NCBI RefSeq assembly: GCF_000027125.1
Contig: NC_017626.1
DNA: 64,000 bases
Source of the DNA: Escherichia coli 042
GTDB taxonomy: Bacteria > Pseudomonadota > Gammaproteobacteria > Enterobacterales > Enterobacteriaceae
Direction: 5' to 3' (one strand)
Position 1 is the stretch's first letter; each line of letters starts with the position of its first letter. The notes beneath the pieces are model-generated. The model was not told the DNA's origin, ran no database searches, and saw only the letters and a list, made by a program, of their open reading frames with translations. The translations under genes and the position numbers were made by a program. This document shows, in pieces, positions 19,921-22,996 of the stretch.

Positions 19921-21122
19921 TGCCGGTTGCTTCCGGAAGGTGTGACAAAATACGGAAATGATGATGCTCCCGGCCCTGCATGCTCACCTGCAGAGCGTGT
20001 TCGTCGTCATCATACTGAGCCATGACGGGCGTCTTAAGGGCATCCTGTCATTGCTGAGCAGGCAACACCACCAGAGGAGCCACGGACAGGGATGTTCTTT
20101 ACAGCCCGATACACGCCAGGTTCTCAGCAGACTGAATGTGCAGGTGCGGTTATTCACCAGAAATGGCATGCTGCGGTACATACCCATCCTGGTGACAATA
20201 TGTACGTGGCGACAGCGATCCCGGCACTGTGGAAGAGACTCACTCAGCCTGCAGGATATTCTTTCCGGCATCCGGGAATGTCCGCCTGAATGCAAACAGG
20301 ATGATATTTGAATCCGTAATACTGTTCTTTCATCATAAATAATTTATGCAGATACAGTTAACCGTTACAGTAGCCGGTTTGTTTTACCGGGAAATAATAT
20401 CCGTCAGACTGATGCCGGAACATATCTGAAACACGTTATGATGTTTTGTTATCAGAAATGTTGTATATTCTTATCCGTGGCGACAGTTTAATGCCCTCTG
20501 GTATCACCTTGGATAATGCATATCCTGCGATGATTCGTTATATTTACGGGACACGCCTCTTTTCATTGTGCTCCTTTTCAGACTTCATTTTCCGTAAGTG
20601 TTCCCCGGCATAAAGGAGGTACCTTTCTGGCGTTTATAACTCTCTTTATCGGTGACGCCGGTAATACAGGGAATACCACACCGACAAACGAGGTATTAAC
20701 AGACGATATTTCAGTGTCCATAATTTTTCTGTCCGGTTAAATAACGTCAGTCTGCTGCCCTCTGACTGTAATCATCAAAGCCGGAATGCATACCGGGTTA
20801 CAACGTAAAAAAAGTGATGCTGGCCCCCGGTGCAGCTGGCGGGCGAAACATGTTTACCTTTCAATACCCCCTGTCTGCAGTCTCCACTCTTCCATCCTCT
20901 TAAGCTACGTCGGCCACATGAGTGCACTTCCATGATAACAGGTATTCCTGTCAGCATAACGAAGCTGGTTACCTTCCCTTCCTCCTGCATTTCCTGTCAG
21001 AATGACTGTACAGCGCGCAGATTGCCTTTTTATTGACCACCTTAATATACCATTATAAACTTCTTTTTATCATGTTATTATCACCTTATTATGTTTAATT
21101 TTTAAGCAGCCGGAGAAAGGGG

Positions 21123-22001
21123 ATGGTTCAGAAAATTTTGTCGGATAAGGTTATGAATGAAAGAACAAATGCGTATTACTCTTATTATCTTGGAGGGCGT
21201 AATATCTCCGTACTGCCCCTTAATGTTTATGATCCCCCGGAACGTTTTATCGCTTACATAAAAAAAAACAGAGAAAATCTGAACATCACACTTTCAGATT
21301 TTGAACTTGAACAAATAATTTCTGGTATGCGTCTGAAGGCCCTGGCCTTCCTGGTCCCCCTGGAAAAAATATCCTGGATCGCGGGCAGTGAACGCGCATG
21401 CTTATTTTCCTGGTATCTGTTGATGCAGTTTATCCAGAATAACAGGGCAAAAATAAGCGCAGACTTGCTTCAAAAGAATAAACTGTATCTTAAAGAAGAG
21501 TATCTGGAAGGGAATGCCTTCCCGTCGGACTCATCGACACAGTTCAGACAAATACTCAGAGTTCTCGATATTCTTTCTGATAAGAATTTGCGGGATGAGT
21601 GGATAATCCAGACCAAAGACAGATGGATGCGGGCATTTAAATCAAAGAGTCCTTTCAGTTACCTCCTCCCGGAGAACGAACATGAATGCATATGGACATG
21701 GAATTATTTGAAGGGAAAAAATATTGCACTGGAAAAACTGGCCAGTTTTCCTGGTTCTGCTGATATTTACCACGCAATTCACCTTTCATTTGACATATGG
21801 GTTACCTGTCCACTCACCTCACCTGACGATATAAAAAATTTCAGAAACAGTTTCAATAAGGCCAAGGCGCAGCGCAAGTACAAAAAATGCAGGAAGATAA
21901 AGTCAATGTACAGTTTTTTCTTGACGCAGAAACCAGGGCGCAGCTCAAAGAATTATCGAGGGTCAGAAGACTCAGTACCGGCGAAATGCTGCATGACCTG
22001 A
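21123..22001 (+). CDS. hypothetical protein (AT-rich; 3-prime end uncertain)
   Basis: 292-aa ORF; low-complexity tail, with an alternative frame carrying a conserved-looking peptide (see finding at 21887-22039). Confidence 0.4.
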   Translation: MVQKILSDKVMNERTNAYYSYYLGGRNISVLPLNVYDPPERFIAYIKKNRENLNITLSDFELEQIISGMRLKALAFLVPLEKISWIAGSERACLFSWYLLMQFIQNNRAKISADLLQKNKLYLKEEYLEGNAFPSDSSTQFRQILRVLDILSDKNLRDEWIIQTKDRWMRAFKSKSPFSYLLPENEHECIWTWNYLKGKNIALEKLASFPGSADIYHAIHLSFDIWVTCPLTSPDDIKNFRNSFNKAKAQRKYKKCRKIKSMYSFFLTQKPGRSSKNYRGSEDSVPAKCCMT

Positions 22002-22123
22002 TTGTTGAAGAGTATAAAAGGTACCGACATTCCAGATAATTTCAGACATATATTATCTCTGTGAGTCCCCCGCCACCTTTCCGGTGTGCGGGGGTTTTGT
22101 CTTTTTTCACCGGGAATACATGT

Positions 22124-22996
22124 ATGAATCCGTCTGATGCCATTGAGGCAATTGAAAAACCGCTCTCCTCCCTGCCTTACTCACTTTCCCGTCACATCCA
22201 GGAACATCTGCGCAAACTCACCAGTCACGAACCCGTGATTGGCATTATGGGTAAAAGCGGGGCCGGTAAATCCTCACTCTGTAATGCACTGTTTCAGGGG
22301 GAGGTCACCCCGGTCAGTGATGTTCACGCCGGCACCCGGGAAGTGCGGCGCTTCCGTCTGAGTGGCCACGGTCACAGCATGATTATCACTGACCTGCCCG
22401 GGGTGGGCGAGAGCCGGGACAGGGATGCAGAGTATGAAGCCCTGTACCGTGACATTCTGCCTGAACTTGACCTGGTACTGTGGCTGATTAAAGCCGATGA
22501 CCGTGCCCTGTCTGTGGATGAGTATTTCTGGCGACACATACTGCACCGGGGACATCAGCAGGTGCTGTTTGTGGTGACGCAGGCCGACAAAACGGAGCCC
22601 TGCCATGAATGGGATATGGCCGGCATTCAGCCTTCTCCCGCACAGGCACAGAACATTCGTGAGAAAACAGATGCGGTATTCCGGCTGTTCCGGCCCGTAC
22701 ATCCGGTTGTGGCCGTATCGGCCTGCACCGGCTGGGAACTGGATACGCTGGTCAGTGCGCTCATGACAGCGCTTCCCGACCATGCCGCCAGTCCCCTGAT
22801 GACCCGCCTGCAGGACGAGCTGCGCACGGAATCTGTCCGGTCTCAGGCCCGTGAACAGTTTACCGGTGCGGTGGACCGGATATTTGACACGGCGGAGAGC
22901 GTCTGTATTGCCTCTGTTGCACGCACGGTTCTGCGTGCCGTCCGTGACTCGGTGGTCTCTGTTGCCCGCGCTGTATGGAACTGGATTTTCTTCTGA
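22124..22996 (+). CDS. YfjP/YeeP-family GTPase (CP4-type prophage)
   Basis: Start at MNPSDAIEAIEK; P-loop GKSGAGKSS, DLPG; near-identical to recalled K-12 YfjP. Confidence 0.85.
   Translation: MNPSDAIEAIEKPLSSLPYSLSRHIQEHLRKLTSHEPVIGIMGKSGAGKSSLCNALFQGEVTPVSDVHAGTREVRRFRLSGHGHSMIITDLPGVGESRDRDAEYEALYRDILPELDLVLWLIKADDRALSVDEYFWRHILHRGHQQVLFVVTQADKTEPCHEWDMAGIQPSPAQAQNIREKTDAVFRLFRPVHPVVAVSACTGWELDTLVSALMTALPDHAASPLMTRLQDELRTESVRSQAREQFTGAVDRIFDTAESVCIASVARTVLRAVRDSVVSVARAVWNWIFF

Follow-up and report, generated by a model that had tools for sequence, protein, structure and literature searches.

The locus considered here raises the question of whether a short open reading frame (ORF) lying across the 3′ end of a longer one is a small gene in its own right or a detached part of its neighbor. 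The window, i.e. the whole stretch of DNA that was analyzed, comprises 64,000 nt of Escherichia coli 042 (contig NC_017626.1), and all coordinates refer to it. The longer ORF (21123–22001, + strand) encodes 292 residues, and its last 115 nt are overlapped by a 50-codon ORF (21887–22039, + strand) encoding the peptide MQEDKVNVQFFLDAETRAQLKELSRVRRLSTGEMLHDLIVEEYKRYRHSR. The two frames meet at an A6 homopolymer (21882–21887, + strand), whose last A is also the A of the ATG of the short ORF. Codons 1–255 of the longer ORF occupy 21123–21887 and codons 256–292, which end in the tail KYKKCRKIKSMYSFFLTQKPGRSSKNYRGSEDSVPAKCCMT, occupy 21888–21998 and are followed by a stop codon (both on the + strand). 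Directly after the stop codon of the 50-codon ORF is a terminator-like GC hairpin followed by a T-run (22067–22107, + strand), seen in the sequence and in a scan, and the downstream neighbor is an intact 290-residue YeeP/YkfA/YfjP-type GTPase gene with its own start (22124–22996, + strand). The sequence-only reading of this stretch had reported the 50-codon ORF, its peptide and its overlap with the 292-residue ORF, all of which agree with the ORF listing and coordinates; it had also called the ORF unannotated, which does not hold for GenBank, where the exact 50-residue ORF is listed as a hypothetical protein in AWZ79475.1 and CDL44588.1. Two explanations had been offered: a frameshift of the long ORF at the A-run, or a small regulator gene preceding the GTPase gene.

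Of 5,426 complete E. coli genomes searched by megablast with 21100–22130, 1,348 contain the full-length locus, and the best matches are one base longer than the query. Strains BL21(DE3), 50579417, CB6886 and MARGA_4 each have A7 in the alignment (TAC AAA AAA ATG) at the position of the A6 run of the window, and each carries a single 918-bp CDS at the locus, annotated as a 305-residue "hypothetical protein" (WP_000250228.1 or WP_001536286.1; UniRef name Ybl124). The translated intact CDS consists of residues 1–255 of the 292-residue ORF followed by the 50-residue peptide (junction ...AQRKYKK/MQEDKVNVQF...), such that the short ORF equals residues 256–305 of the intact protein. Alleles were counted with 76/77-nt probes centered on the A-run in 1388 locus-bearing complete E. 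coli genomes: the A7 version, which is the ancestral and majority state, was matched exactly in 1280 of these and the A6 version in at most two. PGAP labels the A6 configuration "frameshifted" in strain OXA-181. Thus, with A7 in the relatives and one CDS joining both ORFs, the first explanation was borne out, and the 50-codon ORF is very probably the C-terminal ribbon-helix-helix (RHH) domain of a 305-residue island protein, severed by an A7 to A6 frameshift. The whole gene spans 21123–22039 (+ strand, 917 bp), is the orthologue of the 918-bp CDS of WP_000250228.1, and is to be annotated as one frameshifted pseudogene, rather than as a 292-residue gene and a new 50-residue regulator gene. A one-base deletion in a coding A7 that splits a CDS is also what is seen in island pseudogenes labeled "frameshifted" by PGAP at short E. 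coli homopolymers; there is no substantive difference from these, and the finding belongs to that category. As such, it is an ordinary pseudogenizing frameshift in an island gene, which is not surprising biology in itself.

The reading frame that is conserved across the family is the fused one. Homologues of 304–306 residues occur in Salmonella enterica, Serratia fonticola, Enterobacter mori, Edwardsiella tarda and E. piscicida, with sequence identities of 48–78%; they are collinear with the 305-residue protein to its last residue, with conservation highest over the C-terminal ~60 residues. When 1.84 billion representatives were scanned exhaustively with HMMER, about 168 clusters (50% identity clustering) were obtained, most of which are ~300 residues in length and share 20–30% identity, with alignments that reach residue ~300 of the query. 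In all seven homologous genes compared, the frame of the RHH segment is the only open frame in this region, and the frame of the 37-residue tail is closed by stops in Serratia, Salmonella and all distant homologues. The test set beforehand was whether homologues keep the annotated frame and not the alternative peptide; the opposite was found, with the 50-residue peptide conserved, at the C-terminus of homologues with as little as ~20% identity, and the 37-residue tail not. The 50-codon frame therefore goes well beyond a chance occurrence. Comparison of these homologous sequences indicates that the fused 305-residue frame is ancestral.

The RHH-like character that had been proposed for the 50-residue peptide agrees with both profile searches and structure prediction. 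The predicted segments are the strand KVNVQFFL, helix A (ETRAQLKELSRVRR) and helix B (GEMLHDLIVEEYKRY). The peptide alone matches Pfam RHH_1 (PF01402) with an E-value of 0.03 and 14.7 bits, below the 20.5-bit cut-off of that family. Recurrent matches were obtained with members of the family at E≤1: 24 of 58 matched RepB-RCR_reg (PF10723) and 12 of 58 RHH_1 (best E-values 1.5e-4 and 5e-4, respectively), and there were occasional matches to MatP_C (2 of 58), HicB, CopG_antitoxin and RHH_7. Against the PDB, the family profile matched SvtR (2kel, E 0.024), MatP (7nyw and 4d8j, E 0.025–0.05) and CopG (2cpg, E 0.9), and hhalign aligned the RHH part with that of MatP over 35 residues with a probability of 83%. 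Since RHH domains fold only as dimers, residues 238–305 were modeled with AF2 as a single-chain dimer, in which the segment was placed twice in tandem with an artificial linker, using a 39-sequence alignment. The model, which is of moderate confidence (mean pLDDT 69.6, core 75–89), displays strand-helix-helix twice (DSSP E23–30, H32–44 and H49–68; E107–114, H115–128 and H132–150), and the two modeled chains are intertwined, with their strands forming an antiparallel ribbon as in the RHH dimer fold. The RHH assignment is therefore well supported in silico by the recurrent profile matches and the predicted model. Proteins of the RHH superfamily (Arc/MetJ/CopG) share with the 305-residue protein the ~45-residue strand-helix-helix unit and a strand of alternating polar and hydrophobic residues (K-V-N-V-Q-F). 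Most characterized RHH proteins are small and stand-alone, or have the RHH at the N-terminus; here, in contrast, the RHH closes the chain, after an all-helical domain of ~240 residues.

Indels in homopolymers are the most frequent type of error in long reads, and the missing A could in principle have arisen during sequencing or assembly, with the gene intact in the organism. The other complete genome with A6, OXA-181, lends this some weight: in the fetched locus (NZ_CM150779.1, 1777–5076), three consecutive genes, those for the 305-residue protein, the GTPase and Ag43, are labeled "frameshifted" by PGAP, and codon 25 encodes Glu, as opposed to Gly in the window. The A6 of OXA-181 is probably a homopolymer error in that assembly or an independent event, and it is not counted as an independent A6 allele because the neighboring genes are also frameshifted. 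For the window itself, however, an error is very improbable. Alignment of positions 7000–33000 with MARGA_4, the closest genome to the window, covers 26,002 bases with 28 substitutions, and the only gap is the missing A. Moreover, the exact 292-residue product is indexed in 71 blocks of a public assembly collection, and A6 with the linked GGG (Gly25) codon was found in all 10 of the loci read from these, which come from independent assemblies, including several NCBI isolate assemblies and ENA (gut) metagenome assemblies; some of the ten have a diverged allele of the downstream GTPase. That the missing A is the sole indel in 26 kb and that the same A6/Gly25 haplotype recurs in independent assemblies shows A6 to be an allele inherited within a sub-lineage, rather than an artifact of one sequence. 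The intact 305-residue sequence is present on at least 1,000 contigs of the public collection. In a protein collection, the 90%-identity cluster with the 305-residue protein has 8,076 members, which is not a measure of the abundance of this protein because the cluster includes many unrelated 220-residue YtfE iron-sulfur repair proteins, a co-clustering that looks like a clustering or index artifact.

The second explanation offered at the outset would have the 50-codon ORF as a genuine stand-alone RHH regulator gene of the CopG/Arc type, located upstream of the GTPase gene and overlapping a separate 292-residue gene. The ATG, a complete sequence of RHH length, the stop codon and the terminator-like hairpin are all present, and the ORF is entered as a CDS in the two GenBank records cited above. 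Against this, the same codons are the C-terminus of the 305-residue CDS in the 1280 genomes with exact A7. Met256 is confined to the E. coli clade and is replaced by K, N, S or R elsewhere, and pairing with the anti-Shine-Dalgarno sequence is negligible at the ATG at 21887 (−0.2 kcal/mol), as compared with −6.6 kcal/mol at the true start at 21123. No separate small RHH gene is present at the homologous loci in E. coli relatives or in five loci fetched from outside E. coli, and the 37-residue tail, which this explanation would make the C-terminus of a separate protein, is unconserved and closed by stops elsewhere. This second explanation is thus largely refuted, and we assign it only a slim probability.

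The least probable of the alternatives is a functional switch at the A-run, whether by a phase-variable A7/A6 tract or by programmed −1 ribosomal or transcriptional slippage that yields both 292- and 305-residue products: A7 tracts are mutable, the run is A8 at the same place in Serratia, A6 is found on both Gly25 and Glu25 backgrounds, and Lys-AAA codons are slippery in E. coli (e.g. A AAA AAG in dnaX), but the population is almost monomorphic, the run encodes lysine and every homologue is in frame, the in-frame heptamer is C AAA AAA (zero-frame context C AAA AAA T) rather than X XXY YYZ, and six A's are too few for efficient slippage of RNA polymerase. Programmed frameshifting was rejected, as no stimulatory RNA structure was found in the 100 nt downstream (z = 0.19; 109 of 200 shuffles fold as well) and the configuration is unconserved among homologues. 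Phase-variable polymorphism of the tract is not frequent, with A6 in at most two of the complete genomes and, in the draft data, tied to Gly25 in every locus read. Some full-length protein could nonetheless be produced if −1 slippage occurs on AAA AAA at a low level.

The preferred reading remains a frameshift that severed the C-terminal RHH domain of the 305-residue protein, and the gene in the window is a genuine pseudogene, or split gene, that is inherited. One A of the A7 tract was lost by strand slippage, which shifted the frame after Lys255. The gene is now read as a 292-residue product consisting of the authentic 255-residue helical N-terminal domain and 37 out-of-frame nonsense residues, and the RHH segment is left as an orphan ORF that starts by chance at the E. 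coli-specific Met256 codon. Because the RHH is detached from the 292-residue product and no ribosome-binding site precedes the orphan ORF, loss of function is the most economical reading, and the DNA-binding function has most likely been lost in the A6 lineage, which provides a naturally occurring truncation allele.

Residues 1–240 of the intact protein are confidently predicted to be all-helical (full-length pLDDT 81.5). Searches with this region gave no Pfam, NCBIfam or PADLOC family, no informative PHROGs family, no sequence match in the PDB and no PDB fold above noise; for the 305-residue protein as a whole, the only signals in the family libraries and in the PDB sequence search are weak Arc-like/RHH matches at the C-terminus. 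The family thus combines a new-looking N-terminal domain with a C-terminal RHH.

Two known proteins are informative for comparison. MatP (3vea, 4d8j and 7nyw) has the same order of elements, with a helical region, a basic stretch and then the RHH, and the family profile matches it over positions 187–297 at the E-values given above. The match includes a motif at residues 187–200 of the intact protein (window ~21681–21722), HECIWTWNYLKGK, which in an HMM alignment (E 0.025) is similar to the beginning of MatP (ECGWKWAYLIRKH), with ECIWTWNYL corresponding to ECGWKWAYL in MatP. In that alignment, the motif and the basic helix after it look like the N-terminal bundle of MatP. In contrast to this profile match, hhalign aligns only the 35-residue RHH part, and the Pfam family of the MatP N-terminal domain has no match. 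The 305-residue family also ends 5–10 residues after helix B of the RHH, without the C-terminal coiled coil of MatP, and its gene is borne on islands, whereas MatP is core chromosomal. A relation of the helical region to MatP is therefore suggested by the sequence as a lead, rather than as membership. TraY, a relaxosome accessory protein of the F plasmid with a tandem RHH (9f0x), is like the 305-residue protein encoded on a mobile element; it differs in having two RHH repeats per chain and no large N-terminal domain, and shares 16% sequence identity. The island in the window also carries inovirus-Gp2-like (HUH-type) genes, whose products could nick DNA. Because its N-terminal domain has no recognizable function, the 305-residue protein could have a role other than that of a transcription factor, e.g. 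as an accessory factor of a relaxosome, as is TraY, or of partition, as is MatP.

The position of the gene is conserved. In E. coli, Salmonella and Serratia, the 305-residue gene is followed after ~85 nt by the YeeP/YkfA/YfjP-type GTPase gene, with the terminator-like hairpin in between; the Serratia homologue has a similar GC-rich inverted repeat and T-run 3′ of the gene. DUF932, antirestriction, RadC and CbeA/CbtA genes are found further downstream. Because the GTPase and the 305-residue gene are paired in these three genera, a two-gene functional unit is possible; the YeeP-type GTPase of the window has weak PADLOC matches to the dynamin-like LeoBC (E 1e-8) and LeoA (E 3e-5). In the five fetched loci from outside E. 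coli (a metagenome contig, an NCBI assembly, Serratia, Salmonella and a Klebsiella plasmid), the family gene is the first of the rightward module and is divergent from an AlpA/inovirus-Gp2-like module. The distant members among these, with ~23–27% identity and including the one on the Klebsiella plasmid (IncFIB/HI1B), head a rightward block that is divergent from an AlpA/inovirus-Gp2-like (YagK_YfjJ) block or adjoins a P4-type integrase. The annotated genes immediately upstream are, however, on the same strand in the window and in closely related E. coli. A member with 27% identity is found in GCA_003575165.1 (fetched locus 1–1907), in a P4-integrase island beside guaA that has BREX cargo (BrxA/B/C); P4-integrase islands with family members carry defense cargo. 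A phage origin was considered and rejected, as a tblastn search of 50,697 phage records gave no match.

Immediately upstream of the gene is a conserved block (21038–21122, + strand) that is a candidate promoter/operator, as judged from the cross-genus comparison, which covered the last ~400 nt, with the promoter read by inspection. The part between 21038 and 21105 is more conserved than the coding sequence of the 305-residue gene, and 32 nt within it (21065–21096) are 100% identical in E. coli, Salmonella and Serratia, whose proteins are 68–78% identical. By inspection, the block contains −35/−10-like elements (TTATCA-17-TATGTT) and a Shine-Dalgarno sequence (GGAG). The sequence CCTTAWWAT occurs at 21040 and is repeated at 21084, 44 nt apart, a type of candidate operator repeat that is weakly above chance, with 5 matches in the window versus 1.9 expected. 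The ~1.2 kb that precede the gene (19921–21122) contain nothing that is convincing as an ORF, and the equivalent interval measures ~1.7 kb on the Klebsiella plasmid island and ~0.4 kb in both Salmonella and Serratia.

From the gene position, the domain content and the conserved control region, we infer that the intact protein is a regulator or autoregulator. It most likely works as a dimer, in which the two RHH strands would form an antiparallel ribbon that reads the major groove, with a basic helix, FRNSFNKAKAQRKYKK, preceding each RHH strand. The 305-residue protein probably regulates the rightward module of the island (GTPase through DUF932, antirestriction, RadC and CbeA/CbtA) at the level of transcription, in islands of the CP4-44/CP4-57 type with a P4-type integrase. 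Its target is probably the candidate operator, i.e. the strongly conserved block immediately 5′ of the start of its gene. A broader proposal, which we regard as tentative and rather unlikely, is that the family represents an unrecognized master DNA-binding regulator of CP4-44/CP4-57-type islands with a P4-type integrase, which would act at the conserved control region between the divergent modules, or a MatP/TraY-like DNA-organizing factor for them. If this were true, the A6 lineage would amount to a naturally occurring knockout with altered expression of the rightward module (GTPase, Ag43, antirestriction and CbtA/CbeA).

Of the complete E. coli genomes, 26% carry a member of the family, Nissle 1917, BL21 and HS among them. 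Literature searches for the 305-residue protein (WP_000250228, Ybl124), or for yeeP together with ribbon-helix-helix, found nothing, and those for the YeeP/YkfA/YfjP GTPase found nothing about the 305-residue protein. The present analysis assigns an RHH, and hence DNA-binding, domain to a common "hypothetical protein" whose gene comes first in the rightward module of islands that carry Ag43 and CbtA, in the position expected of an island regulator; this gives a cheap and testable entry into the control of cryptic islands.

Two other elements were observed in the window. A full-length Rfam IS102 RNA (RF00124; 23114–23350, + strand; 74.6 bits versus a gathering threshold of 46, E 1.5e-11) lies in the spacer that separates the GTPase and Ag43 genes, which is the position of IsrC in E. 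coli K-12. Additionally, a ~770-bp segment (47717–48483) is an IS1-family element, 91% identical to an IS1F copy of MARGA_4.
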